A DNA stretch of 20,880 nt from Candidatus Methanomethylicia archaeon (lineage in GTDB: Archaea; Thermoproteota; Methanomethylicia; CALHIW01), in assembly GCA_038845975.1 (NCBI GenBank), contig JAWBQF010000039.1, positions 1 through 20,880 of the forward strand, read 5' to 3'. Below, piece after piece: positions 1,888-16,796 of the stretch. The first letter of the stretch is position 1; each line of letters starts with the position of its first letter. Position numbers and translations under genes: made by a program. Under the pieces are notes generated by a model. That model was given only the letters and a program-made list of their open reading frames with translations, was not told the DNA's origin and made no database searches.

Positions 1888-2237
1888 AAATAATACTCCA
1901 CATAGCCTAGTACCGCTCAATATTCTCTGTAACTAAAACCAATATTCATATTTAACTAGTATCCACGGCATAGTGGCCTGCTAGCTATCCCTATTCTTAA
2001 TAGCCTCTGAGTAGGCTTAACTATTTAAGTCTTCCATGTTAAGCTTTACAAAGCTTTACATAGCTGTGATAAATAACATATTTCATATGTTTGTCGTTGA
2101 TTATAGGTGAACGGATATGTTTGCTAAGTATAGTTAAATTCCTCACATAACTAAATCATTTAGATAAGTGAGAGAAAGTCTAGTAACAATATTCCTAAAG
2201 TAGCACATAATATGTTTAAGAGTTTATAATTAGTTCA

Positions 2238-2947
2238 CGCTCTTTAATAAGATTTTGTGGTTGTTTTCTGATTTTTTCTATGGGTGTTCTTAGTCTTCAT
2301 TCTAGTGAGACTGTTTTAATCTGTTTAAGATTGTTAGATGGTTGATGGTGTTCGATGTCCTAGATGTGGTTCTAGTAGGGTTATGGAAACCATAGGGATG
2401 TCTTAAGAGATATTTTTGTAAGTCTTGTAGGAGGATATTTAATGATAAGACTGTTACGATATTCCACTATTCTAGACTTAGTCTTAGGAAATGGTTCATT
2501 CTCATACTATTCTAGGCTTACATAACTTATCTATGGTTTAAGCTGGTTTCCAGATAGATACTTCATGGCCGTCTTAAGGCTTTAAGGAAGCTTATGTTAG
2601 GGATTAGGAGTAAAGCTGATCATATTTAGTTTAATAAAGCTATTGAAGTTGATAAGCCATACGTTAATGCCGGATTGAAGAGTAGGAATGAAGTGGAGGA
2701 TTACATATCATCAAGTAATGTTGAGTCTGAAACTACTTTTAAGATCTTAAGTAGACGAGTTAAGGAGAGTTCAACGATACATACGGATAGCTTCAACTCG
2801 TACATGGAATTAAACGAGCTAGGATATATGCATGAATATATAAACCATTATCTCTAACCCATTCTGAAATGTCATGTAAATAATCATGAGAATAAAACAT
2901 CAATACTAAGACAATGACTAACAATCACAAAACCTTATTAAAGAGCA
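2238..2947 (+). mobile_element. IS1595-family (ISH4-type ends) element, internally deleted
   Basis: 27-bp inverted repeat with 2 mismatches (2239-2265 / 2920-2946). Left end CGCTCTT. Flanking direct repeat TAGTTCA (2231-2237, 2948-2954). Confidence 0.85.
2280..2920 (+). pseudogene. IS1595-family transposase pseudogene
   Basis: Zinc ribbon DGVRCPRCGS and YFCKSCRRIFNDKTVTIFHYSRLSLRKWF; IEVDKPYVNAGLK; STIHTDSFNSY; GYMHEYINH (2675-2857 ORF). Frameshifted and truncated. Confidence 0.85.
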
Positions 2948-3037
2948 TAGTTCAAATTAATTACCTAGCAGTTATAAATTCCTCTCTTTTCCATCTTCAA
3001 TTTCCCTATTATAGATATTAAGTAGTAGGGCTAAACT

Positions 3038-3217
3038 ATGATTAATTTCACCGGATTCAATCAAATCCCCAGTCAGTTGCAATCCGCTAAGAAGCTTCAC
3101 AGAACTATACAAACATGTCTAACTTTCCTACATGGGGGACTTAGGCTAGCCCCCGTTAAACCTGTGGGTCTTAAATTGCTAAGATCTACAGGGATGACAG
3201 TGCCGTTCTATAGGTGA
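3038..3217 (+). CDS. Putative 59-aa small ORF leading the pilus operon (below the ORF-track cutoff)
   Basis: ATG 3038 to TGA 3215-3217: MINFTGFNQIPSQLQSAKKLHRTIQTCLTFLHGGLRLAPVKPVGLKLLRSTGMTVPFYR. AT-rich TATA-like stretch at about 3007-3021. No recognisable motif. Confidence 0.3.
   Translation: MINFTGFNQIPSQLQSAKKLHRTIQTCLTFLHGGLRLAPVKPVGLKLLRSTGMTVPFYR
3132..3192 (+). promoter_or_regulatory. Two adjacent stem-loops upstream of pilin 1
   Basis: ATGGGGG(3132-3138)/CCCCCGT(3150-3156), and a 13-bp stem CCTGTGGGTCTTA(3161-3173)/TAAGATCTACAGG(3180-3192). The non-Watson-Crick pairs are G-U on the + strand. Confidence 0.45.
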
Positions 3218-3221
3218 TATT

Positions 3222-3692
3222 ATGGTTAAAAGCCTCATCAAGAATAGGAAAGCTATAAGCTACGGTATTATTGTTGCACTAATAACAATAGTAGCCATAG
3301 CTTCCTCCGCTTTAATTGCTGTATGGATTTTTGGTGCTGGAGCAGCGTCCACCAGGAAGGCTGCATTTGAAGTTGTAGGTATTCCACTAATCTCAAGCAC
3401 TACTAATACTCTTTCCTTAACTGTCAAGAATATAGGTGGAATAGACGCCTACATTATAAAGTTCATTATTGGAGGTCAAGAAGTTACTGGTGGTTGGAAT
3501 GTAGTGAGGGAAGGCGGCTTTTCATCCAATAACATTATTCCAAGAGCTACAAGCGTAACTATTAGTGTAGCAAACCTGCCAAATAATATTATAAATGTTC
3601 AGGGAACTAGTATTAAATGGGGTGATAGTGTTAATTGCCAACTTATAACCGATCAGGGTACTTTGCCCTTTACAGCTTATGTAACTGATTAG
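3222..3692 (+). CDS. Archaeal type IV pilin (probable major pilin) with class III signal peptide
   Basis: KNRKA|ISYGIIVALITIVAIASSALIAVW: basic leader, cleavage after Ala, hydrophobic helix. Also LTVKNIGG and C-terminal LITDQG. SD-like AGGTGA at 3212-3217. Confidence 0.85.
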   Translation: MVKSLIKNRKAISYGIIVALITIVAIASSALIAVWIFGAGAASTRKAAFEVVGIPLISSTTNTLSLTVKNIGGIDAYIIKFIIGGQEVTGGWNVVREGGFSSNNIIPRATSVTISVANLPNNIINVQGTSIKWGDSVNCQLITDQGTLPFTAYVTD

Positions 3693-3701
3693 GTGTACTC
3701 T

Positions 3702-4133
3702 ATGAAAATACTGAAATCTAGAAGAGCTATAAGCTATGGGATTGTTGTTGCATTAATAACTATTGTTGCATTAGCTTCAGCATCTGTTATTGCTGGATGG
3801 ATAGTAACTGTAGGTACAAGAGCTGGAAGGCAAGCTCTACTTAAAGTAACAGGTTCACCAGTAATACAGTTTGATGATGTTAGTAGCTATGTAATAGTAT
3901 CCATCACAAATATTGGAAATACGCCTGCTAGAGTTATTAGTTGCATGTATCGTGGTACTGCTGTTAATATAGATCAAGTATTATCTGGAGAGGTCTCAAT
4001 ACAGCCCGGCACCTCGGCAACATTCAGATTTCGATTTGCAGGTAATATTTGCCCAGTTATTGGCGACTCAAAGGAATTCACATTAGTAACTGATCAAGGA
4101 AACCTGGTTTTTACAGCTTATAGGCAAGGGTGA
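3702..4133 (+). CDS. Archaeal type IV pilin, paralog of the upstream pilin
   Basis: KSRRA|ISYGIVVALITIVALASASVIAGW; SITNIGN; LVTDQGNLVFTAY. ATG 3702 preferred over GTG 3693 because AGGTG lies upstream. Confidence 0.85.
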   Translation: MKILKSRRAISYGIVVALITIVALASASVIAGWIVTVGTRAGRQALLKVTGSPVIQFDDVSSYVIVSITNIGNTPARVISCMYRGTAVNIDQVLSGEVSIQPGTSATFRFRFAGNICPVIGDSKEFTLVTDQGNLVFTAYRQG

Positions 4134-4155: not shown

Positions 4156-5772
4156 ATGAAGCTAAGTATTAAGAAGAAAAACGATAGTTCTTTAGAGCAA
4201 CTTATTAAAAAGCTTCGTAGCTCCAAGAAGAAAAGCTCTGAAAGTACATATAGAGTAGAGGGTATAGGTGAAGTTAAAGTTGTTTATCCCTCGCTTGAAG
4301 GTAAAAATATAATTGAGAAATACACAATTCCCAATAATCCAGTTGAAATATTTATTACTGATCAAGGTGAATATTTAGTATGTGATCCTCCGTTAAGTGA
4401 AGAACAACGTAAAAAACTTGTAAAATTCATGTCAGATCTTATTTATCTACTGCCTGATGATATAACGCTAAGCGATATTGAGAAAACCACAGGCATTCTA
4501 ACTGATGTTGAGACCTACCTGGTTACGAGAGAAGTTTTTGGGTGGAGTGTTCTCGATCCTCTTATAAGAGATCCTAGAGTTGAAGATGTAAATATTACTT
4601 CTGCATATGCACCTGTACTAGTTACTCATTCAACCTATGGAAACTTAACATCTAACATCTACTTCGACTCTGAAGAAGAGGTTTTAAGGCTTGCAGAAAA
4701 ACTAGTTCATAGATGTGGTAAAACAATTTCCTTCTACCACCCTTTATCCTCAATAAGAACTCCTGAAGGACATAGATTAACAGTAACCTATGGTAGGGAA
4801 GTATCTCATACTGGTACCTCAATAGTTGTAAGGAAGTTTCCTGAGTTTTCCTGGAGTATTACAATGCAGATGGTTAGGAACACCATTGATCCAGTCATAG
4901 CCGCCTACTTCATGATGCTTATAGAAAATAGGCTTGCATGTATAATTTATGGAGTTATGAGCTCCGGGAAGACTTCTATGGTTAATAGCTTATGTAATCT
5001 TATACCTGCTAATGCAAGAATAGGAACTATTGAGGATACCGCTGAGCTTCGATTAGCTCATCCATATTGGAAGCCTCTAGTAGTTAGGGAATCCTACACT
5101 GTGGATAAGAGAGGTGAGATCTCACAGTTTGATCTTGTTAAGCACTCATTAAGAATGAGTTTAGACTATATAGTTGTAGGTGAAGTTAGAGGTAGAGAAG
5201 GAATTGATTGGGCTCAGGCAGTATTAACAGGTCATGGAGGTATAACATCTTTTCATGCTGGAGGTCCTGAAGAAGTTATTCAACGTTTCACTTCACCACC
5301 TATATCCCTAAGTTTAGGTGGTTTAATGGGTGTTTACTCGATGGGACATATGATGAGGCTAGTGAAAGAGGAGAAGGATGGTAGAAGATCATTTGTAAGA
5401 AGGATGATTGAAGTTCATGATGTTAGTTTTTCATCTGATAGTTACGATATTAAGCTTTTTGCTAGATATGATCCATCTAGAGATACTTTTCTCCACATAT
5501 CTAACGATGAGGTTATTAAGCTTCACTCTATGAGGAGGATTATGGAGCTACGAGGCTGGGATGAAAGTAGATTGATAGAAGAGCTTCACTTAAGAGAGGC
5601 TTTCTTAACTTTTCTCAGGGATAAGGCTAAGATAGATGAAGCCTTTCTAGATTATCAAGTAGTTACAAGGGCCATATGGAAGTTCTACGAGGATCCATCA
5701 TACTTCCAATTGGAGAATAAGGTTCCACTTGGAAGAAAATATATGCAATCCATAATAGCTATAAAGCCTTGA
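4156..5772 (+). CDS. Type II/IV secretion ATPase (PilB/VirB11/ArlI superfamily), pilus assembly ATPase
   Basis: LDPLIRDPRVEDV; Walker A GVMSSGKTS; Asp box TIEDTAEL; Walker B YIVVGEVRG; His box GHGGITSFHA. Confidence 0.95.
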   Translation: MKLSIKKKNDSSLEQLIKKLRSSKKKSSESTYRVEGIGEVKVVYPSLEGKNIIEKYTIPNNPVEIFITDQGEYLVCDPPLSEEQRKKLVKFMSDLIYLLPDDITLSDIEKTTGILTDVETYLVTREVFGWSVLDPLIRDPRVEDVNITSAYAPVLVTHSTYGNLTSNIYFDSEEEVLRLAEKLVHRCGKTISFYHPLSSIRTPEGHRLTVTYGREVSHTGTSIVVRKFPEFSWSITMQMVRNTIDPVIAAYFMMLIENRLACIIYGVMSSGKTSMVNSLCNLIPANARIGTIEDTAELRLAHPYWKPLVVRESYTVDKRGEISQFDLVKHSLRMSLDYIVVGEVRGREGIDWAQAVLTGHGGITSFHAGGPEEVIQRFTSPPISLSLGGLMGVYSMGHMMRLVKEEKDGRRSFVRRMIEVHDVSFSSDSYDIKLFARYDPSRDTFLHISNDEVIKLHSMRRIMELRGWDESRLIEELHLREAFLTFLRDKAKIDEAFLDYQVVTRAIWKFYEDPSYFQLENKVPLGRKYMQSIIAIKP

Positions 5773-5785
5773 CTTAGGGATATGG

Positions 5786-8176
5786 ATGGCTAGAGATATT
5801 ATATATGCTATTGATGTAAGTGATTCAATGTGTAGTAGAGGCTTTAAAACGAAGTCTCGTCTAGACATGGTTAAGGAAGCTCTTATTAAACTCATATCTG
5901 ATAAATCCATATTTAATAGTGATGATAGATTAGCTATTATAGGCTTTCATGCTGAAGCATTATCATCTAAGATCAATCACCAAGTTATAATACCTCTAAC
6001 ACCTGTAAAGCTTATTGCTGCATCAGATATTAAGAGAATTAATAATTTGAAGGGTTATGGAAGAACAGCTTTAGGTGCAGGTTTAAGAAAGGCCTTTGAG
6101 ATTCTGTTAGAGAATGATATTGGTAACGAAAAACTTATTGTTTTAGTAACTGATGGTAGGAATAATTCAGGTGAACATCCATATGCTTCAATGCAGGATA
6201 TAGTTAAGCATAATGTTAAGGTTTACACTTTAGGTTTAGGCTCCGATTTTGATAAGACAGTTCTTAAGGTACTTGCTGATAAAACAGGAGGACTCCATGT
6301 TGGGATTAAAGATAAATGTTTTGAATATTTGTTACTACATCCCGATAAAGTATCTCTACATTTTAAGACTGAAAGCTCTTCTCTAAATAGTTGTAAGGTG
6401 GAAAATATATGTAGTTCCAAAGGAGTTTTAGTAAGGTATGTTCCAGCACCAATTAGAACTACTACTTCAAAATTTAAATTTCAAATACAGAATCTATCTC
6501 CAGTAAGGCTTTCAGATAAGATTTATCTAAGCGGTATGGGAATAACACCTAATAAGTGGAAGAAGTATATAGCGGCTTTGTTTGCTTTTTCAATTCTTCC
6601 ATCTATAGCCTATTTCATAGCATCATTTTGCTTAAGTCTAGATTTATTATCCGTGTTGATTCCATATCCATATGATTTATTGGCTGTTATAGGATTATCT
6701 ATATCTATCAGTCTTATTCTATACTATACTCCAGCGGTTAAAGCTAGTATTTTCCAGTCTAAGCTTAGAAGGGAGCTTCCATGGATTGCATCCTACTTTG
6801 TTAATAATGCTGCTATAGGTATACCTCCAACAGTAAGCTTAGAAAGAGTTATAGGTTTAGAGGAGGTATTTCCTGCTTTTGCTAGATTAGCTAGAATGGT
6901 TAGTAAAATCAGGATTTTGAAGGCTATGGATCCATTTTCAGCTATAGCCTGGCATGCAGATAAGTTTACAGATCCCGATCTAAGAGATTTCCTAATATCA
7001 ATGGCTTCAACACAAAGAAGTGGAGGAAACATCTACGTGGTTTTAAGAGAGAAGCTTCAAGCCTTATATGCTGAGATGAGAAGTTCCCTGGAGGTTTTAG
7101 GAGAGAAGTTTAATGCTGTTGCCTCATTTATCTTCATGATTTATGTTTTACTACCAATATTTATGCTGAGTATAGGTATTATACTTGGCGGTGTTAATGG
7201 ATCAATAATTCTCACATCCTTCTTCATATTAAATACGTTTTTCAGCTTTATATGTTGTCTTCTTGTAGATGCTCTAATTCCTAAAGAGCTTCTAGCAAAA
7301 CCCTCCTATAAGCCACTAGCTATACTACCATTAGGATTGATCCTTATTCCAGTTAAGCTAATTAATGATGTAAAAGTTACTCTGCTATTTGATAAACTAT
7401 ATTACTTCATAGCGTTAGCTATTATTGTAGGTCTTACTCTCCCATCTATTTATGCTTTAAAAACTAGAGGTAAACAGAAGAAAATTATTTATGCTATTCC
7501 ATCATTTCTTAGAGATGTTTCTGAAAGAGTTAAGAAAGGTGAATCTCCAGGATTAGCTATAAGATGGCTTTCATCAAATAGAAGCTATAATAAATGCTTT
7601 GATGAAGCTTTAAGAAGGATCTCAGCATTTATGCATAGTGGAGCTAGAATAGGAGAAGCAGCCAGACTGGTTGAAATTCCATGGGCTGCTAAAGTATCAT
7701 TTGAACTACTAGATACTACTGAGCAGACTGGAGCTGATCCCTCCCTAGTTGAATTCATAGTTGAAAGTATTAATCAGCTATTTACAGCTATGAGAATGCT
7801 AAAAGCTAGAGTACGTTTTTTTAAGCTTATAGTATATCTTAGTGTATGTATGATTACTTTTACTGTTGCCCTATCAAGTATTGTAATGAATATTCTATCT
7901 CTTACCTATCAGCAGGCCGGTGGATTAGCTGGCCAAATGATTGGAGTTTTAACGCTTCCAAAAGCTGAGGATGTTGAATATATTACAACAATGGCTTCGG
8001 TAGGAGCTATGTATACTGCAGTGTTACTTGGACTTATAGGCGGTAAGGGAAGTGATGGAGGTTCATTAATTGATGGTTTACCCCATGCATTAATCTGTAC
8101 AGTTCTTACAGTATTTCTTCTCTATATTATGGTTGATACTGGTTTACTCTACTCTATACTTGGGGTTAGTCTATGA
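5786..8176 (+). CDS. vWA domain fused to a TadC/ArlJ-like (two T2SSF-type domains) pilus membrane platform protein
   Basis: Residues about 1-185: IDVSDSM, GRTALG, VLVTDG (MIDAS D-x-S-x-S, T, D). C-terminal about 540 aa: multiple TM helices, LRRELP..LRDFLISMASTQRSGGNI and IPSFLRDVSERVKKGESP..EQTGAD (two T2SSF-like units). Confidence 0.88.
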   Translation: MARDIIYAIDVSDSMCSRGFKTKSRLDMVKEALIKLISDKSIFNSDDRLAIIGFHAEALSSKINHQVIIPLTPVKLIAASDIKRINNLKGYGRTALGAGLRKAFEILLENDIGNEKLIVLVTDGRNNSGEHPYASMQDIVKHNVKVYTLGLGSDFDKTVLKVLADKTGGLHVGIKDKCFEYLLLHPDKVSLHFKTESSSLNSCKVENICSSKGVLVRYVPAPIRTTTSKFKFQIQNLSPVRLSDKIYLSGMGITPNKWKKYIAALFAFSILPSIAYFIASFCLSLDLLSVLIPYPYDLLAVIGLSISISLILYYTPAVKASIFQSKLRRELPWIASYFVNNAAIGIPPTVSLERVIGLEEVFPAFARLARMVSKIRILKAMDPFSAIAWHADKFTDPDLRDFLISMASTQRSGGNIYVVLREKLQALYAEMRSSLEVLGEKFNAVASFIFMIYVLLPIFMLSIGIILGGVNGSIILTSFFILNTFFSFICCLLVDALIPKELLAKPSYKPLAILPLGLILIPVKLINDVKVTLLFDKLYYFIALAIIVGLTLPSIYALKTRGKQKKIIYAIPSFLRDVSERVKKGESPGLAIRWLSSNRSYNKCFDEALRRISAFMHSGARIGEAARLVEIPWAAKVSFELLDTTEQTGADPSLVEFIVESINQLFTAMRMLKARVRFFKLIVYLSVCMITFTVALSSIVMNILSLTYQQAGGLAGQMIGVLTLPKAEDVEYITTMASVGAMYTAVLLGLIGGKGSDGGSLIDGLPHALICTVLTVFLLYIMVDTGLLYSILGVSL

Positions 8177-10737
8177 AGCCCTCTATGGTCGAGTATACAT
8201 TAAGACATAGATTATTGTCTCCTATAATGTATAGTAGCCTACTGAAGAGTTTAACTTGGCTATTTACATTTTTAATGTTTACTTCCATTTTAACTCCGGT
8301 TTTAGAATCTCAAGAAATATATATTTCTGAAGATCTAACATGGTGGCGTTTATACAATAGATTCGATAGTAATCCTACTAATATTACCGATAATGTAAAT
8401 GATCCGTATTTTGACTCTTGGTATGATGTTGCTACCGACGGGAAAACAATATTTTGTGTAGGATTTTGGGATTATTACTGGGATTCTAATTGGGTATATG
8501 GTAGACATTTAATGACTCTATATGATCTTAAAGGTAACGTACTGAAATCCCATGTATGGTATCCTCCTGTAGGTTTTTGGGGTACTGGAAGAAGAGGTGC
8601 TAGAGGTCTTGAAGCCTACTTTGACAGTCAATACTACTATGCTATTGGAATTGTATGTGAGGAGATAAATCCACCTGGTGGATGGACAGTAATAGATAAG
8701 GATGTCTACGTACTAAAATATACTAGTAGTGGGAGCCTAGTTTATAGCTATGTATCTAATGATGGGGATTATGCTTTTCAATGTAGGGATAACTATGGTA
8801 ATTATGCTTTAGGTTCACGTATTCGTCATAACTATTGTGAAGCTATGGTTAAGGTTGGTAGTGATATCTATGTTGCTGGATATGGTAGTATTGAGGTTTT
8901 CAACTGTTTAAACCATTACATATACGATGTCGGTATTATTAATCGAATAAGAGATTATGGTAGCTATGCTGGGCATGTAAGCTCTATTGAAGCTATTAAT
9001 GCTAGGTTTTTAGGAATTGCAAGTGATGGTGTTTACATATATGTTTCCGGATGGATGCCGGATGGTAATGGTAAGATAGGATATATTGGATGCTATACTA
9101 GGGATTTATCGCTAGTCTGGTGTAAAACTCTTAGCTTTACTACCGAGCTTTTCGAGGTAAGGTATAGTAATGGGTTTTTATATGTATGTGGCTATGTTTC
9201 AGATTCTTCAGGAATGAGTGATGCTGTACTAGTTAAGCTGGATAGGAATGGTGAAGTTGTTTGGTGGAGAAGATATGGATTACCAAACTCCAATGAGTGG
9301 TTTAGAAGCCTAGCTGTAGGTGAATACATATACGTTACTGGTGGGGGTAGAGGTGGAACATATTATCGGTATGTTTGGGAAACTCAACAGCAAGACTTTC
9401 TTATGCTTATAGTAGATAAGAATAATGGAGCTGTCGTCTGGGAGGATTCATGGGGTGGATCTGGCTGGGAGCTTGGTGAGGAGATAGCTCTAATATCTAT
9501 TTACGGGGTTGAATCCCCCATTGTTGTTGGAGGTATGGAGTCATGTATGCGTAGCCGGGAATGCTATATTGTAGCTTACTGGTCTCCAATTAAAACACCT
9601 ACTAAACATAGGCGTCTCATATTGGCACCATATACTGGGGAGTATATAAGTGAATTAAGCTCTAAATTTCTACCATATGAGTTTATTGGTGGTGATGTTA
9701 GCTACTGGATTAAGTTACCTGTTAAAACTATTGATGGAGCTACTAAGATAAATGGATTTGCCATACATTGGGTTAATGTAACAATGCATGGTAGTGATTG
9801 TACAGGATGGATTATATTTCCTAATAGTACTGTATATCCTGGATTAAGAAATATTCCTAATAGTATCAGTTTAATTTTCAATACTACATGCTATGGTGCT
9901 GAAATAATTGATGGTGAAGCTATTCAAAAAATCATAGTTGGAATACCTTTAAACACTACTGGTAGATTATCTGTTGCCTATATTGATGATTATGGTATTC
10001 TACATTTAGCTGGAGGATATGGTAAGTTAGATAAGGGTGTTAGACTAATAGCTTCAAATTCTACAGGTACCTATATCTTATCGTTTCTCATTAAGTCTGA
10101 TGTATATGAATATATTAATAATGGATGCTACATCAAGTCTAAAGTCTACTTTCTAAACTTTACTAGACCCTTTACTGTAATGAGCGCTAAGCTAAACTAT
10201 ACAGTTACACATTATGATAGTCATGTTGAAATAAACTTTACTCCAATATGGCTAGATAATGGTGAAATGATACTAAACAGAAACTTTACAGTTTACCTTG
10301 AGGAATTGAAGCTTAGAAGTATCTTCGTAAATCAAACAATAATTAAAATACCTCTTGAGAAGCTAAATGTTTTAGGAGTAGTTAACGGATCCATAACTGC
10401 TACATTACTACATTCACCTGGAAACGTTATTGTTAACTATGAGGCTGCTAAAATACCCTACTATGATTTAGCTTTAGAGGTTATATATAGAAACTCATCT
10501 ATACTTATATTAAGGGTTTTAAGATTTAATGATTTAGCACCTGTAGATGGAGTTAGGGTAAATCTTATAGCTGATGGCATTGTAGTAGATGAAAAGACTT
10601 CGAATACGGATGGCTTAGTTATTTTCACACCTCTACCATCATATATGGAGCTTAAAGCATCTCTAATACCTCCTAAATGCTCTACGATCTACAATACGTT
10701 AAGATATGGCAACATATTGATAGATAGCAGGGAGTAG
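8173..10737 (+). CDS. Large secreted protein: beta-propeller-like N-terminal half plus glycosylation-sequon-rich beta/Ig-like C-terminal half (adhesin candidate)
   Basis: Hydrophobic N-terminal segment. Repeating blade-like motifs (DVYVLKYTSSGSLV, DAVLVKLDRNGEVVW, YIYVSG/FLYVCG/YIYVTG). C-terminal PVDGVRVNL..TSNTDGLVIF. ATGA overlap with the upstream gene. Confidence 0.7.
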   Translation: MKPSMVEYTLRHRLLSPIMYSSLLKSLTWLFTFLMFTSILTPVLESQEIYISEDLTWWRLYNRFDSNPTNITDNVNDPYFDSWYDVATDGKTIFCVGFWDYYWDSNWVYGRHLMTLYDLKGNVLKSHVWYPPVGFWGTGRRGARGLEAYFDSQYYYAIGIVCEEINPPGGWTVIDKDVYVLKYTSSGSLVYSYVSNDGDYAFQCRDNYGNYALGSRIRHNYCEAMVKVGSDIYVAGYGSIEVFNCLNHYIYDVGIINRIRDYGSYAGHVSSIEAINARFLGIASDGVYIYVSGWMPDGNGKIGYIGCYTRDLSLVWCKTLSFTTELFEVRYSNGFLYVCGYVSDSSGMSDAVLVKLDRNGEVVWWRRYGLPNSNEWFRSLAVGEYIYVTGGGRGGTYYRYVWETQQQDFLMLIVDKNNGAVVWEDSWGGSGWELGEEIALISIYGVESPIVVGGMESCMRSRECYIVAYWSPIKTPTKHRRLILAPYTGEYISELSSKFLPYEFIGGDVSYWIKLPVKTIDGATKINGFAIHWVNVTMHGSDCTGWIIFPNSTVYPGLRNIPNSISLIFNTTCYGAEIIDGEAIQKIIVGIPLNTTGRLSVAYIDDYGILHLAGGYGKLDKGVRLIASNSTGTYILSFLIKSDVYEYINNGCYIKSKVYFLNFTRPFTVMSAKLNYTVTHYDSHVEINFTPIWLDNGEMILNRNFTVYLEELKLRSIFVNQTIIKIPLEKLNVLGVVNGSITATLLHSPGNVIVNYEAAKIPYYDLALEVIYRNSSILILRVLRFNDLAPVDGVRVNLIADGIVVDEKTSNTDGLVIFTPLPSYMELKASLIPPKCSTIYNTLRYGNILIDSRE

Positions 10738-10738
10738 A

Positions 10739-11473
10739 ATGTCTAGGTTAACCATAAATTGTAGGGGACTAGCCTTCCTATCAAAGATAATGATTATCAT
10801 AGTAATTCTAGGATTATCTACCCTGTTTCTAACTCTATTTCTACCTGTAATTCTAAAGCCTACCAGCCCATGTAATGGTAGAGATATTGGGGAGCTTATA
10901 GCTAATACTATGGAGGGTAGTTTAAGATCATCATCATCCTGTAGTTTAAATGGGAATTGCTTAATAGAGGTTTCATCATCTAGTAGATATGAGGTTAAGA
11001 TTATAATTAATGAACGTGAGGAAATAGTTGTAGAGCAGCCTAAAACCTTTATTAGAATTAATGGTTCATATGAAGTTTTCAATCAGGGTTTAGCAGTTAG
11101 AAACCATACTAGTACTCCTCCTATATGTATAAGTTACTGTGTTAACTCATCTATACATGTTAGACCTCTAATCTATTATTCCATAGGTGATATTGAAGAG
11201 TATAGTAAGAAGTTTATGGTGTTAAAGATCCTTATACCTGTATTAAATATCCAAAAACTAAAAAGTAGAGCTGGTAGTGTAACTATAAATTTTCTTCCAG
11301 AAAACTCTACTGTTAAGGAGTATGTACGTTTCTTCAGTACTCCTACATCAGCATCTCTAATTATAAATGGTCTACAAATATTGACATACAAGTTTTCTCC
11401 CTATTCTAATTATCAAGGATTAATAGTTAGGATTATTATTCAGAAGATATTTGTTAATCTGATAGGTGGTTAA
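10739..11473 (+). CDS. Minor pilin-like protein
   Basis: CRG|LAFLSKIMIIIVILG class III-like leader plus hydrophobic helix; 4 N-x-S/T sequons; operon context. Confidence 0.6.
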   Translation: MSRLTINCRGLAFLSKIMIIIVILGLSTLFLTLFLPVILKPTSPCNGRDIGELIANTMEGSLRSSSSCSLNGNCLIEVSSSSRYEVKIIINEREEIVVEQPKTFIRINGSYEVFNQGLAVRNHTSTPPICISYCVNSSIHVRPLIYYSIGDIEEYSKKFMVLKILIPVLNIQKLKSRAGSVTINFLPENSTVKEYVRFFSTPTSASLIINGLQILTYKFSPYSNYQGLIVRIIIQKIFVNLIGG

Positions 11474-11474
11474 T

Positions 11475-11843
11475 ATGGATAGACCGTTAACTGAGGTTTT
11501 AATAGCATTTATAATGGTAGCTATTACATGTCTAAGTATACCGTTAACTAGTAGCTTTCTACTAAATACTGAGTATGCTTCATCTTCCTTAAATGCTAAG
11601 TATTGTATTAATGTCTTAGCATTAGCCATATCAAGAGCTTCAAGAGTTTCCACCCCTCAAACTATTAGTCTACCATATACTATTGGAGTTCACGTAAATA
11701 ATACCATAGTAACAGTATCTATAGGCTATGCTAGTGAATCTATGGATGTAGGTATTCATGTTTTTGGTGGAGGTGTTTCAAACTGCTTTACAGTTTGGTT
11801 TAACAACTCATATGTTATAGTTAAGTCTGAGGTGGTGAAGTGA
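11475..11843 (+). CDS. Small pilin-like membrane-anchored protein
   Basis: MDRPLTEVLIAFIMVAITCL N-terminal helix with an early Glu and a beta-rich C-terminus; no clear G/A cleavage site. ATG 11475 follows AGGTGG (track start 11466). Confidence 0.5.
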   Translation: MDRPLTEVLIAFIMVAITCLSIPLTSSFLLNTEYASSSLNAKYCINVLALAISRASRVSTPQTISLPYTIGVHVNNTIVTVSIGYASESMDVGIHVFGGGVSNCFTVWFNNSYVIVKSEVVK

Positions 11844-12325
11844 AGGTTTTAAGTATTACTAAACTAAGTTCTCATGGTTTAAGCTATGTTTTACCTGTAT
11901 TGATATGTACTATAACAGTAATCTCAATTTCAGTATTAACAGCATCTATAGTCTATCCCCTAGTTATAAGAAGTAGAGGTAGTGAGGAAACTGTAAATTC
12001 AATACTTGCTATACATAATGCTATTGAAAGCATAGCTTATAGAATCGGTTCCTCAACAACTATATATGTAAATATTCCATCAGACTACCCTGTAATTATT
12101 GACTCACATACCGTTAAATGTATTAAAAACATAATTCTTAAAAGTAGAATTTTCAGCGATCCTAGGGGTATAGTTGATTTCATAGATGACTATGGGGTAA
12201 AGTATAGTAGGGTAGTAGTGAATAATTCAAAAGTTATTGTAGGAGTTTCAAGAATTACTTTAACATGTATTGGGGTTGTAAACGGTAAATCCATAGTATC
12301 TCTGGAAGTAGCTAGCATAGTCTAG
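11840..12325 (+). CDS. Minor pilin-like protein
   Basis: KLSSHG|LSYVLPVLICTITVISI class III-like leader; GTGA overlap with the upstream gene. Confidence 0.6.
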   Translation: MKVLSITKLSSHGLSYVLPVLICTITVISISVLTASIVYPLVIRSRGSEETVNSILAIHNAIESIAYRIGSSTTIYVNIPSDYPVIIDSHTVKCIKNIILKSRIFSDPRGIVDFIDDYGVKYSRVVVNNSKVIVGVSRITLTCIGVVNGKSIVSLEVASIV

Positions 12326-12409
12326 ATTATGGATATATGTGATCAATACGATATGTTAAGATATGGTTTATGATGTTGATTGTTAAATCTAGTCTAGTAG
12401 GGTGGTTAA

Positions 12410-12802
12410 GTGGAGGTTTTGTTTGAGATAGCTGTTGTATTTATGCTTTTCACCATAATGTTTTCAGTAGGTTTATTGGAGGTATGTTCCAGGGTTATTA
12501 CAGCCTCAAATCTAGTATGTACAGGCAGATTAGCCTACATAGCTGACTTAGAGGCCGAGAGAATAGCTAAACAGATACCCCCACAGCTTAAAGTAGCTAT
12601 TAACTCATCCATAATACTTTATGAAAGAGTTGAAAAGTATCAGTATGCTTTGAATAAATACTCTATGCTGGGATTCTGGGAGACTGAGAAGACAAGATAT
12701 TTACTGGTTTCTAATATTCTAAGAGCTGAATCTGTAAAACTTATCTATGTAGATAACTTTATTGTAAGAATTTATGTTGTTGCTTTTTGGGGTGGTTTAT
12801 GA
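12410..12802 (+). CDS. Small membrane-anchored protein, pilin-like by context
   Basis: N-terminal hydrophobic helix (VLFEIAVVFMLFTIMFSVG); GGTGG upstream; overlaps the next gene (ATGA). Confidence 0.5.
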   Translation: MEVLFEIAVVFMLFTIMFSVGLLEVCSRVITASNLVCTGRLAYIADLEAERIAKQIPPQLKVAINSSIILYERVEKYQYALNKYSMLGFWETEKTRYLLVSNILRAESVKLIYVDNFIVRIYVVAFWGGL

Positions 12803-13221
12803 AGCTTATATCTTCTAAAAAAGGTCAAGGAAGACTTATTGAGGGTGCTTTAGCATGTTTAATCCTACTTATTTGCTTTGGATCAGCCATGTATATTGTT
12901 GGTGTTAAAGCTCAAACAGTAATGAGGGTTTTTGATCTTGAGGATTTAGCTTATAGTGTTTTAAGTATACTAGATGAAGATGGGTTACTTGTTAAAGCTG
13001 TATATTTTGGAAGAATGGATGAGCTTAGAAATGCCTTAAATACGTTAATACCTTTAAGCATAGGATATAGATTTGAAGTTAGAGATTTAAATGGATATGT
13101 TGAGCAGGCATTGGAGGGTAATGGATTTAAAGCTGGAGATACAGAATCAGCTATTTACATATTATCATGCTATGCCGATTTAGATAATCCAAGAATAATT
13201 GTTCTAATTCTTTCAAGGTGA
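12799..13221 (+). CDS. Minor pilin-like protein with KKG|Q signal
   Basis: MKLISSKKG|QGRLIEGALACLILL; ATG 12799 overlaps the upstream stop (track start 12787). Confidence 0.7.
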   Translation: MKLISSKKGQGRLIEGALACLILLICFGSAMYIVGVKAQTVMRVFDLEDLAYSVLSILDEDGLLVKAVYFGRMDELRNALNTLIPLSIGYRFEVRDLNGYVEQALEGNGFKAGDTESAIYILSCYADLDNPRIIVLILSR

Positions 13222-13225
13222 TAAT

Positions 13226-13996
13226 GTGAATAACAAAGGTCAGATACTCATCATACTAGCTGTACTTCTAGGATCTATGCTTATTTCATTTGCCTCTCTA
13301 ATACCAAACTTTAACATTTCTATATTCATGCTTACCCCTCCCAAACAGGCTTTAACATCAATGTATCATAACTTAGAGATAAATGCTATAGCCTATGCCT
13401 CTAGAATATATATTCCAGATAGAGTAAGCTTTAATACACCTAATCCTCAAAGTATTAGCTTACAGGCTGAAAGTTACATTTTATATTTTAAATCTAAAGT
13501 TGAAAATGCTAGAGTAAATCAAGCATTATGGAGTATTATAAACATTACTGATGGCTACCTATTCAAATTTACCAATTTAGGAGCAGTACTTAGCCTAAAC
13601 TCAACAGTATCTGCCTTAGCACTATGGAATATTAGTAAACCTCATGTACCAGTAGATATTAATACAAGCTATAAAGTGGAATTAACTCTTCAAGACTTAA
13701 GTATTGTAATGAATCCTTACAGATATGGCTTCATATACAATTCCACAATTAAATACATACATATAGTCGATAATATAGCTACTAGATATCCTGAATTGAA
13801 TTTTACAGCATACACATTAAACAGCATTACTGGTACATGGGTTAGAACGGAAATATTAAAAATCATATATAGAGGTAACGGTATTTATAATTTAGCTATC
13901 GATATAGGTGTACCATTAAACGCTCAAAATCCATATGTAATAGTTCAGGTAGAAGATAGTTGTGGAGTAATACTATGGTTTAAATGTCAAGCATAG
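13226..13996 (+). CDS. Minor pilin-like protein with KG|Q signal
   Basis: MNNKG|QILIILAVLLGSMLISF; 7 N-x-S/T sequons; GGTGA upstream. Confidence 0.7.
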   Translation: MNNKGQILIILAVLLGSMLISFASLIPNFNISIFMLTPPKQALTSMYHNLEINAIAYASRIYIPDRVSFNTPNPQSISLQAESYILYFKSKVENARVNQALWSIINITDGYLFKFTNLGAVLSLNSTVSALALWNISKPHVPVDINTSYKVELTLQDLSIVMNPYRYGFIYNSTIKYIHIVDNIATRYPELNFTAYTLNSITGTWVRTEILKIIYRGNGIYNLAIDIGVPLNAQNPYVIVQVEDSCGVILWFKCQA

Positions 13997-14289
13997 ATGA
14001 TACTATGCTTTCAAGGCTTTTAAGGCTGAAGAATACTGTGAAAATTAATGGTTTACCGCTTCACATATCGTATAACTTATGGACTGGTATTGCATCTGTA
14101 TCCTATGGTAGCTTAAAAGTTGAGAAGATACTTGTCTGGAATGGTGGAGAAATCAATATATTGAATATTAAAATTAAGTTTAGAGGCTACTTAAATCCAT
14201 ATGCTGAAATCTACGTTAACAATACATTGTACACTAAGATTAGTAATATCCTTAAATTCAAAGCTAAACACTATAGAGCTAATAGCTAA
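13984..14289 (+). CDS. Hypothetical 101-aa beta-rich basic protein, last gene of the cluster
   Basis: Overlaps the upstream gene by 13 bp; no signal peptide or recognised motif. Confidence 0.5.
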   Translation: MSSIDDTMLSRLLRLKNTVKINGLPLHISYNLWTGIASVSYGSLKVEKILVWNGGEINILNIKIKFRGYLNPYAEIYVNNTLYTKISNILKFKAKHYRANS

Positions 14290-15674: not shown

Positions 15675-15928
15675 TTATTATTGAGGAAGATAATTTATAT
15701 ATAGAATTGTGATGTTGTAAATAAATTTACACTTCCATCATTTCTTAAGAAGATTAAACTATATATGGCTTTAATATAATAGTACTATGATAAACCATTA
15801 TAGGTAGTGTTTAGAACTTAGTAAGTAATTTGGTTAAGGATGAAACTAAACTCTTAATAACTATATACCATTACTGGATTGTTATGATGAGCATGTATTC
15901 ATGCTATGGAGTCAGTAGTTCGTGTTGA

Positions 15929-16014
15929 CAACATGGATTAATAAGAAAGCAAACGCTAAGACTCATAGAACAATACCAAAATGGAATGATAAGACATGTT
16001 TAAGTTTGCAGGGC
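15929..16014. repeat. Diverged inverted copy of 20754-20844 (probable IS/MITE end)
   Basis: Shared ordered blocks ACATGGAT, GCTAAGA, TCATAGAA, CAATACCAAAAT, ACATGwTTAAGTT with the reverse complement of 20754-20844. Confidence 0.65.
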
Positions 16015-16016
16015 TA

Positions 16017-16735
16017 GTATTTCGCATAAGTTTCTCTATTGGTTTATGTATTTGTTATGTTGAATTGTTTTCTTGAGGAATTTTCCATTTCTCTTTTAGC
16101 TTATTCATGTTTTTGAATGTTTTTCCTAGATTTATGTTTAGTTCTGGTAAGTATCTTGTAGATATTGTTTATATCTACTGATTCAGGATTTTCATTGTGC
16201 ATTTTGATTTATGACTTGATCCATTATCCCATACAATGCATAATTCATCATATCTCCTCAACTTCTCCATGAAATCAATAATATGAGTTTAACTAGAATA
16301 ATGTATTGTAGAAACTTATTTCGCATAAGTTTCTACTATTTCGCATAGAAATAGTAGAAAACCATGTTATGGTTTCCTAATTATTGTTCTTAAAATTTTT
16401 CTAGATTCATCAATATTTCTCTACTAGCTTCCATCAACTCTCTAACCCATTAAATTCACTTATTAACTTCAGCCTTATAATGTCTACTTCTAGGCTTAGT
16501 TAAGCTATATCCAATACTAACAATATTCTCCTCATACGTAAGCATCAATAAAATCCACAAGTAAAATATGTAATAGTGCTTTGTGGCTTAATTCTGAAAT
16601 TTGCAAATTCAAGTTTACATAAAGTACGAAAAGCTTAATAAACATTCCTATAACCATAGTATTTAATGATATAGATTACGAGAAATGAATATTAAGCCAC
16701 AAAGCTGTAATAGAATAGAAACTTACACGAAATAC
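16017..16735 (-). mobile_element. IS630-family element remnant
   Basis: Inverted repeat GTATTTCGCATAAGTTTC / GAAACTTACACGAAATAC (2 mismatches). TA duplicated at 16015-16016 and 16736-16737 in a CTAG context. The - strand encodes LCIVWDNGSSHKSK and RYLPELN (IS630 DNAxxH and YSPELN motifs) interrupted by stops. Confidence 0.8.
16578..16705. mobile_element. MITE-A copy 2 (128 bp), nested in the IS630 remnant
   Basis: Perfect 15-bp TIR GCTTTGTGGCTTAAT / ATTAAGCCACAAAGC; flanking direct repeat TGTAATAGt (16569-16577) / TGTAATAGa (16706-16714). Confidence 0.92.
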
Positions 16736-16752
16736 TAGCGAATCTTATGCTG

Positions 16753-16766
16753 GAAAAGTATAAATA
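16753..16766 (+). promoter_or_regulatory. Probable BRE/TATA promoter of mtd
   Basis: GAAAAG followed by TATAAATA about 30 bp upstream of the start codon; GGTGG SD-like motif at 16788-16792. Confidence 0.55.
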
Positions 16767-16796
16767 TTAGCTTTTCTTCACTCTAATGGTGGTATC

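Follow-up and report, generated by a model that had tools for sequence, protein, structure and literature searches.

A conserved, rare fusion of a vWA domain to the membrane platform of an archaeal type IV pilus machine

The inside switching and signal coupling of archaeal type IV filament motors are poorly understood, and proteins with a von Willebrand factor A (vWA) domain have been implicated in them only indirectly, ArnB by an unclear route and vWA+MoxR genes through their position next to thaumarchaeal pilus loci. A 20,880-nucleotide stretch of DNA from a Candidatus Methanomethylicia archaeon (GenBank assembly GCA_038845975.1, contig JAWBQF010000039.1, positions 1 to 20,880 of the forward strand; hereafter the window) raises the question of whether such a domain can be built into the motor itself, and what it would do there. 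One gene of this window joins an N-terminal vWA domain to a TadC/ArlJ-like membrane platform protein. Our analysis indicates that this vWA-platform fusion is a real, conserved and rare variant of the archaeal type IV pilus platform.

The fused gene, its domains and its homologues

The fusion gene is a single uninterrupted open reading frame (ORF) of 796 codons, which we divided into the following parts (MIDAS, metal ion-dependent adhesion site; TM, transmembrane segment; dN/dS, ratio of nonsynonymous to synonymous substitution rates; K+R, lysine plus arginine).

5786..8176, plus strand: vWA-platform fusion gene, 796 aa (ORF, Pfam, NCBIfam and homologue alignment)
5795..6310, plus strand: vWA domain, residues 4-175, with predicted MIDAS residues D10/S12/S14/T94/D123 (Pfam VWA, conservation, AlphaFold2, Foldseek and dN/dS)
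6311..6562, plus strand: linker, residues 176-259, with a conserved helix at ~181-200, a disordered variable stretch and then a conserved pre-TM1 motif
6563..8173, plus strand: platform part, residues 260-796, with ~9 hydrophobic helices, one cytoplasmic T2SSF domain and a second, candidate one (hydropathy, K+R counts, Pfam, UpsF/BasF)
6815-7165 and 7505-7870, plus strand: T2SSF domain of the platform, residues 344-460, and a second, candidate one, residues 574-695 (Pfam, the second below the cut-off)

The Pfam family VWA (PF00092) matches residues 4-172 with an E-value of 1.1e-15 (58.8 bits against a cut-off of 23.8), and two further VWA profiles exceed their cut-offs (PF13519, 45.4 vs 27; PF13768, 35.6 vs 27). 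T2SSF (PF00482) matches residues 344-460 (E 2.5e-10; 40.9 bits against a cut-off of 25.2), and residues 574-695 align with positions 1-121 of the 125 in the same profile at 19.3 bits (E 1.1e-3), below that cut-off; hhalign of the two cytoplasmic halves of the platform found no repeat (probability 0.4%). The NCBIfam models UpsF (NF046075) and BasF (NF053673) align with residues 247-702 and 263-747, respectively, each spanning both platform halves, with the equivalog cut-offs missed by a wide margin (93.8 vs 400 and 50.6 vs 1300). The protein resembles the archaeal TadC/ArlJ/UpsF/BasF platforms, which align over residues 240-796, in being polytopic, in carrying a cytoplasmic T2SSF domain and probably a second one, and in the position of its gene directly after pilin genes and a FlaI/GspE-like ATPase gene. 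Unlike these platforms, it begins with a 175-aa vWA domain and a linker, an extension absent from the other 27 genomes of the class with a platform match and from the 17 platform-matching named loci among the 19 returned.

The MIDAS in the fused vWA reads D10-x-S12-x-S14, T94 and D123, in agreement with the DxSxS and distal Thr and Asp by which the motif is defined in a passage of PMC6509490. In an AlphaFold2 (AF2) model built from 8 sequences (mean predicted local distance difference test score, pLDDT, 63), residues 1-190 form a block with a pLDDT mostly of 70-86 (63-86), in which strands and helices alternate over residues 3-173, and the platform part is helical with moderate confidence. Every listed Foldseek match of the fused vWA is a vWA domain (4rck, TFIIH p44, Rpn10, ITIH, ArnB). 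By profile, motif and model, residues 4-172/175 form a vWA fold with an intact MIDAS, for which metal binding is predicted. A first-pass annotation of this DNA had claimed one 796-codon ORF with a complete MIDAS fused to a platform, and the ORF, the Pfam matches and eight homologues bear this out.

The linker measures ~84 aa (residues 176-259), with a pLDDT <50 over residues 192-253. Its Ser and Thr content is 19% over 176-259 and 25% over the central 56 residues (190-245), compared with 11-13% elsewhere. The Ser/Thr enrichment claimed for it earlier thus stands at a moderate 19-25%, and the claimed length of about 70 aa has to be lengthened. The pre-TM1 motif at its end is shared with the unfused orthologues, which align from about residue 238.

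A protein search of a 5.8-billion-protein collection (E ≤ 1e-3) returned 14 matches, 8 of them full-length fused clusters (770-803 aa, 38-100% identity, ≥99% coverage) and 6 unfused, FlaJ-like proteins with 23-27% identity. D10, S12, S14 and D123 are invariant in all eight fused homologues, and T94 is kept in seven. Two metagenome contigs of 111,588 and 49,952 bases hold fused copies with 79-80% identity, and at the one locus checked of the two (L039) the gene order is as in the window. In comparison with two homologues of 79-80% identity, the vWA has a dN/dS of 0.29-0.31, the linker one of 0.28-0.34 and the membrane part one of 0.16-0.18; on these codon comparisons, purifying selection acts on the vWA part.

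The first-pass annotation had asked for a check of the junction for a misassembly or a stop in the linker, and contigs from two other studies cross it without an indel: a 4490-nt contig (X9) spans 5600-8190 with 4 differences, and a 3298-nt contig from a slightly different strain (X12) spans 5600-6654 with 24 differences. Among the substitutions listed inside the ORF (37; 23 more differences are unlisted), 22 are synonymous, 15 are nonsynonymous and none creates a stop. The raw reads of run X13 cover 17 of 30 bins, run X18 gave 0 reads, and no RNA run is among the sequencing runs listed for the locus. Possible source samples apart, hot-spring metagenomes from at least four studies contain the fused form.

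Distribution and origin of the fusion

A profile of the eight fused proteins was searched against 1.84 billion representatives and matched 6140 proteins at E ≤ 1e-3, of which the best 150 were inspected. Among these 150, only P0007 and P0008 cover both the vWA and the platform; the other platform matches start at profile position ~236 or later, except for P0016 (229) and P0124 (210). The source genome (G000) is 2.77 Mb in size, with 93% completeness and 4.3% contamination, and genomes titled Methanosuratincola or Methanomethylicus fall into its class. In this class 28 of 62 genomes have a platform orthologue (E ≤ 1e-30), and the vWA is present in the source genome only, whereas in the other 27 the match starts no earlier than query residue 205. 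The genus has a single further genome, with 62% completeness, and it gave no platform match. When 401 sampled Thermoproteota genomes were searched with P0008, a fused homologue with 42% identity, 19 matched at E ≤ 1e-60, and the match was full-length only in the source genome. Of 19 loci confirmed in genome contigs, 17 match the platform, all starting at residue 221 or later; a search of these contigs for related loci with the alignment supplying vWA residues 1-200 (A1) gave 103 pattern matches and 0 confirmed loci. The architecture might have proved common, and it is rare by all three counts (1/62 genomes of the class, 1/401 Thermoproteota, 2 of the best 150 matches).

The operons of unfused relatives have the same pilin-ATPase-platform order, with an ATPase 43% identical and a platform 30% identical, aligned from residue 238. 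Since these orthologous operons keep the gene order, the vWA appears as a lineage-specific add-on to a working machine. In a quick maximum-likelihood tree of 34 vWA rows, from which ArnB, TadG and MoxR-linked vWAs were left out, the eight fused vWAs form one group with one change (SH-aLRT branch support 80), which fits a single fusion event.

The nearest vWA-only relatives are proteins of ~300-350 aa whose vWA starts at residues 1-23, mostly 1-7 (best E 3.5e-24 with the profile). These stand-alone, Methanomethylicaceae-like proteins are the best vWA-only matches and share the near-N-terminal position of the domain and a TDG..N.G(E/D).P stretch with the fused form. They differ in ending in a tail where the fusion has the membrane platform; the tail is charged and heptad-like and was read by eye as a coiled coil with no hydrophobic stretch, neither property being computed. 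Among the 401 genomes, the stand-alone family occurs only in a Methanomethylicaceae-like family (f4; 12 of 32 genomes) and, as the fused domain, in the source genome, in which the sole match of a Methanosuratincola stand-alone copy is the fused vWA (E 1.6e-11). We dropped a 'Rosetta stone' reading, in which the fusion would expose a wider vWA-pilus partnership: the stand-alone vWA-coiled-coil genes are not linked to pilus genes in eight loci, one of which has a partial ATPase-like ORF ~7 kb off, and the fusion therefore exposes no general partnership of this kind.

The stand-alone family (~320 aa) sometimes occurs as two copies a few kb apart (L015, L057-L063; genomes G004, G025, G031, G047-G050 and G052). 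Two kinds of neighbour recur beside the stand-alone vWA genes, each in 4 loci: cation-efflux (CDF) genes and P-type ATPase genes.

At least eight platform homologues among the best 150 (789-898 aa) also have long N-terminal extensions. Extensions of roughly 170-360 residues were noted in P0063, P0079, P0083, P0110, P0114, P0122, P0139, P0159, P0096 and P0137, and a Pfam scan of N-terminal extensions found no family in 10 of the 10 scanned. Decorating the cytoplasmic N-terminus of archaeal platforms may thus be a wider habit. The source genome itself has two further T2SSF-type platform loci (C31, 18017-19467; C37, 18804-20003), one split into two ~300-aa frames and the other a single 604-aa frame, and so it has at least three type IV filament systems.

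In the ESM Atlas, three Actinomycetota clusters (51, 206 and 66 members; 539-571 aa) have T2SSF on 100% and VWA families on 54-98% of their members; they are known by Pfam content, not by alignment, and their feature scores are 0.81-0.83 against the tool's 0.9 mark. They carry the same Pfam pair in one protein, in contrast to the fusion they are bacterial and shorter, and being shorter they presumably have one T2SSF domain. Because of these clusters, the T2SSF+VWA domain pair is probably not unique to the present lineage. A tblastn search of the vWA against plasmids gave 79 records, and none of the 60 listed among them is annotated as T2SSF; one Streptomyces vWA locus has no Tad genes, and one Streptomyces Tad locus, reached by tblastn of the ATPase segment against plasmids, has two ordinary unfused T2SSF genes. 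A protein search with the vWA region matched 6 proteins at E ≤ 1e-3 and 9 at E ≤ 10 with no new fused form, and querying the ESM Atlas with just the vWA brought up nothing beyond small, generic vWA clusters.

The literature searches turned up no paper that describes a vWA-platform fusion and none on the Actinomycetota T2SSF+VWA proteins. In Makarova et al. 2016 (PMC4858521), the passages around two of the three occurrences of 'fused' are never about TadC-vWA, and 'vWA' has 0 occurrences in Denise et al. 2019. The earlier statement that no such system had been described survives in that no paper on the architecture was found; it has to be narrowed, since a gene-neighbourhood link between vWA and type IV pili (T4P) is published in passages of PMC4858521 and the Actinomycetota clusters have the same Pfam pair.

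Location and proposed role of the vWA domain

Hydropathy gives about nine hydrophobic helices: two (~262-285 and 297-317) precede the first T2SSF domain, four lie between it and the second, candidate one, and three follow. All eight fused homologues lack a hydrophobic N-terminus, with a maximal 19-residue Kyte-Doolittle mean of ≤0.44 in the first 30 aa. Their K+R counts are 4-6 in the tail before TM1, 17-18 in the first cytoplasmic domain (Cyto1), 3-4 in the TM4-5 loop and 17-23 in the second (Cyto2), compared with 0-2 in each putative outside loop. In accounts of the platform family, the N-terminus is inside and the cytoplasmic domains face the ATPase (passages of PMC10790770 and PMC4307647). 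Given the missing signal peptide and the consistent positive-inside pattern, which agree with what is known of the family, the vWA very probably lies in the cytoplasm. The first-pass annotation had a vWA that starts at residue 4 without a signal peptide and is tethered in the cytoplasm; the first point holds in 8 of 8 homologues, and the second gains support from the two helices before Cyto1, the positive-inside pattern in 8 of 8 and the N-in orientation of the family.

We propose, with a probability of roughly 0.5, that the platform of an archaeal type IV pilus machine acquired an N-terminal vWA that acts as a tethered, metal-dependent docking module. The vWA would be held in the cytoplasm by a flexible tether of ~60-80 residues, beside the two cytoplasmic T2SSF domains that would engage the assembly ATPase. 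A cation bound at the MIDAS could capture some cytoplasmic protein by one of its acidic side chains, and the captured protein would be held or gated at the foot of the machine. The hexameric ATPase encoded immediately upstream would be the likeliest partner, with a regulator as the second choice. Cytosolic vWAs commonly pair with P-loop ATPases, such as MoxR, BchI/BchD, midasin and TFIIH p44-XPD. A docking or gating module for the assembly ATPase in particular is a tentative suggestion. That the domain binds metal, which protein is its partner and how it would affect pilus assembly are all drawn by analogy, for instance with MIDAS domains that bind the acidic side chain of a partner through the metal (passage of PMC6509490).

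Several observations weigh against this proposal. The MIDAS Thr is absent from one of the eight homologues (P0009), and the dN/dS of the vWA is about twice that of the membrane part, which points to weaker constraint. The vWA tree sets the fused and stand-alone groups side by side, with the donor group not separated, and the eight stand-alone loci mentioned above lack pilus linkage. The topology rests on hydropathy and K+R counts, and TM1-TM2 have a pLDDT of only ~45-55 in the AF2 model. A complex prediction of the ATPase (14-row alignment) with vWA residues 1-200, which scored 0.00 in both runs with the controls not folded, counts neither for nor against the proposal.

Separate vWA (arCOG02900) and MoxR/GvpN ATPase genes are tied to thaumarchaeal T4P loci of clade 4A, and passages of PMC4858521 predict them as T4P regulators from their gene neighbourhood. 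These pairs are similar to the fusion in that a predicted cytoplasmic vWA is tied to a TACK-group T4P; they differ in that the vWA is a separate protein neighbouring MoxR there and is fused to the platform here. No MoxR (AAA_3) match occurs among the window ORFs scanned, the AAA_3 matches of the source genome being on contigs C2, C24 and C38, and a MoxR-linked identity of the fused vWA was rejected on this result. On C2, positions 21682-23316 on the minus strand (L019, L054) encode AAA_3 and vWA in one 599-aa frame, which is chelatase/MoxR-vWA-like and unrelated to the pilus locus.

Another reading makes the vWA and linker a phospho-regulatory node bound by an FHA protein, kinase or phosphatase, which would switch pilus assembly on and off as in ArnA-ArnB. 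The moderate Ser/Thr content of the linker suits it, as do the PDB sequence matches, among which are ArnB (8s05, E 2e-7) and its paralogue vWA2 (E 3e-6), the presence of one FHA protein in the genome, and the phosphorylation-dependent ArnA-ArnB interaction in S. acidocaldarius (passage of PMC6509490). ArnB/vWA2 (8s05, 5a8j) resembles the fused domain as an archaeal cytoplasmic vWA with an intact MIDAS and a link to type IV filaments. As described in passages of PMC6509490, ArnB is a separate soluble protein whose vWA sits inside a beta-sandwich, with a phosphorylated four-helix bundle after it, and it pairs with the FHA protein ArnA. Unlike ArnB, the fused vWA begins at residue 4, lacks both of these additional domains and shares one polypeptide with the platform: residue 175 is followed by one helix, the disordered linker and TM helices, with no beta-sandwich, four-helix bundle or N-terminal strands, so that the part bearing the ArnB phosphosites is missing. 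The sequence match to ArnB (8s05) is confined to residues 78-177, the C-terminal half of the vWA, and in the fold comparison ArnB comes 35th. The only FHA match of the genome is outside the window, on contig C1, ~3.3 kb from another vWA gene that would be its more obvious partner, and conservation is low in the variable stretch of the linker. According to passages of Makarova, Koonin and Albers 2016 (PMC4858521), T4P loci never contain the ArnA/ArnB genes. We regard a phospho-regulatory node as distinctly unlikely. The ArnB analogy made earlier proved weak, with the extra domains missing, a partial match and the FHA gene on another contig, and ArnB-type identity was rejected on the start at residue 4, the missing beta-sandwich and helical bundle and the lack of an adjacent FHA gene.

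The C1 genes are of interest in their own right: the FHA match (142-aa frame; 134738-134941, minus strand; L053) and the vWA gene (416-aa frame; 138199-138687, plus strand; L017) may be an ArnA/ArnB-like pair outside Sulfolobales.

Equally unlikely in our view is an autoinhibitory or oligomerising lid, in which the vWA would act on the platform's own cytoplasmic domains or on a neighbouring protomer. Bacterial GspF/PilC proteins have a small, flexible N-terminal cytoplasmic domain in the N-in orientation, and PulF has been modelled as a trimer (passages of PMC10790770). That N-domain consists of one helix and three strands, in contrast to the Rossmann-like vWA with its MIDAS, and GspF/PilC has three TM segments compared with about nine in the fusion protein (also PMC10790770, in part). 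The stand-alone relatives pair the vWA with the apparent coiled coil, an oligomerising element that the platform replaces here, which would favour a lid; the disordered linker and the full-length model, which has no inter-domain confidence, speak against it.

Bacterial pilus-associated vWA domains are established as extracellular, and TadG and PilY1 are exported vWA proteins that act at or on the pilus. The fused vWA shares with them its place in a type IV filament system, and TadG is mentioned in a passage of Makarova et al. An exported adhesin-type domain outside the cell is nevertheless very improbable here: the N-terminus has neither a signal peptide nor a class III signal, an even number of helices (two) lies between the vWA and the cytoplasmic T2SSF domain, the K+R counts favour N-in in 8 of 8, and the nearest vWA relatives have no hydrophobic stretch by eye, which was not computed. 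TadG/PilY1-type export was rejected on the lack of a hydrophobic N-terminus and on the K+R counts, and the vWA is predicted inside. The view that the fusion is an error of assembly or gene calling, or that two genes were recently joined by read-through without any function, finds some ground in the metagenome-type assembly (76 contigs, 4.28% contamination), and misassembly and decay are excluded for practical purposes by the single frame kept in eight clusters down to 38% identity, the fused copies on the two long metagenome contigs, with the same operon at the one checked, the gap-free contigs across the junction and a dN/dS of ~0.3 with invariant MIDAS Asp and Ser residues.

The pilus operon and the meaning of the fusion

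The genes around the fusion gene are as follows.

3222..3692, plus strand: pilin-like gene 1, 156 aa, whose N-terminus has a class III-type signal/hydrophobic segment (translation, weak PDB matches)
3693..4133, plus strand: pilin-like gene 2, 146 aa, a paralogue of gene 1 (translation; 32.6% identity to the Methanosuratincola pilin named below)
4156..5772, plus strand: type IV pilus assembly ATPase, 538 aa, FlaI/GspE2-like (Pfam, NCBIfam, PDB matches)
8173..10737, plus strand: 854-aa ORF without a known family; it has a hydrophobic segment at the N-terminus, and its start codon overlaps the stop codon of the platform gene (Pfam and NCBIfam without a match)
10739..14289, plus strand: seven ORFs of small to medium size, several of which have a hydrophobic segment at the N-terminus; candidates for minor pilins or accessory proteins (translations)

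Pilin-like gene 1, in which we take the stretch 'RKAISYG...' to be a motif, has weak PDB matches to archaeal pilins (8tib, E 0.003; 8fk7, E 0.0077) and 31.5% identity to the pilin upstream of the ATPase in a Methanosuratincola genome. The ATPase matches Pfam T2SSE (E 6.3e-23) and, under their cut-offs, the NCBIfam models FlaI (247.8 bits) and BasE (236.2 bits); its best PDB relatives are 2oap (E 3e-56) and FlaI 4ii7 (E 6e-50). Its stop at 5770-5772 is 13 nt upstream of the ATG of the fusion gene, and the ATG of the next ORF (8173) shares 4 nt (ATGA) with the stop of the fusion gene; the genes are therefore packed as one operon.

The 854-aa ORF (8173-10737) is translationally coupled to the platform gene. 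It has an 839-aa counterpart at the same place in L039, and BLASTP gave no match for it in either of the two unfused operons compared; it therefore co-occurs with the fused form. The seven small ORFs have no Pfam family and keep their order in L039, and for two of them (11840-12325 and 12787-13221) genome G031 holds homologues on the downstream side of its unfused platform gene. With the pilins, the ATPase, the platform and the candidate minor pilins downstream, the locus constitutes a complete archaeal type IV pilus-like operon. Farther downstream are housekeeping genes for aspartyl-tRNA synthetase (AspRS), methylene-tetrahydromethanopterin (H4MPT) dehydrogenase, TatD and a PurP-like protein. 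Two segments of the window, 1888-3221 and 15675-16796, each hold >1 kb without an ORF of ≥80 aa, and tRNA and Rfam scans of the window, these segments included, found nothing.

The value of the finding is limited by the narrow, uncultured hot-spring lineage, by a vWA that is not of the ArnB type and by a Pfam pair that seemingly also occurs in Actinomycetota. Nevertheless, the fused vWA is a simple test object, being a 200-residue soluble domain with predictable loss-of-function mutations, and a vWA held covalently on the platform would fix its site of action to the cytoplasmic face beside the ATPase. A bolder view, which we consider rather unlikely, takes the fusion as a built-in cytoplasmic MIDAS switch that would recruit or release the ATPase or a signalling protein depending on the metal or an acidic ligand, a solution that may have arisen independently in the Tad-like systems of Actinomycetota. 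If true, this would give a physical basis to the vWA-T4P link previously predicted from gene neighbourhoods alone and, should it also apply in Actinomycetota, would reveal a general, undescribed inside control of archaeal-type and Tad pilus machines.

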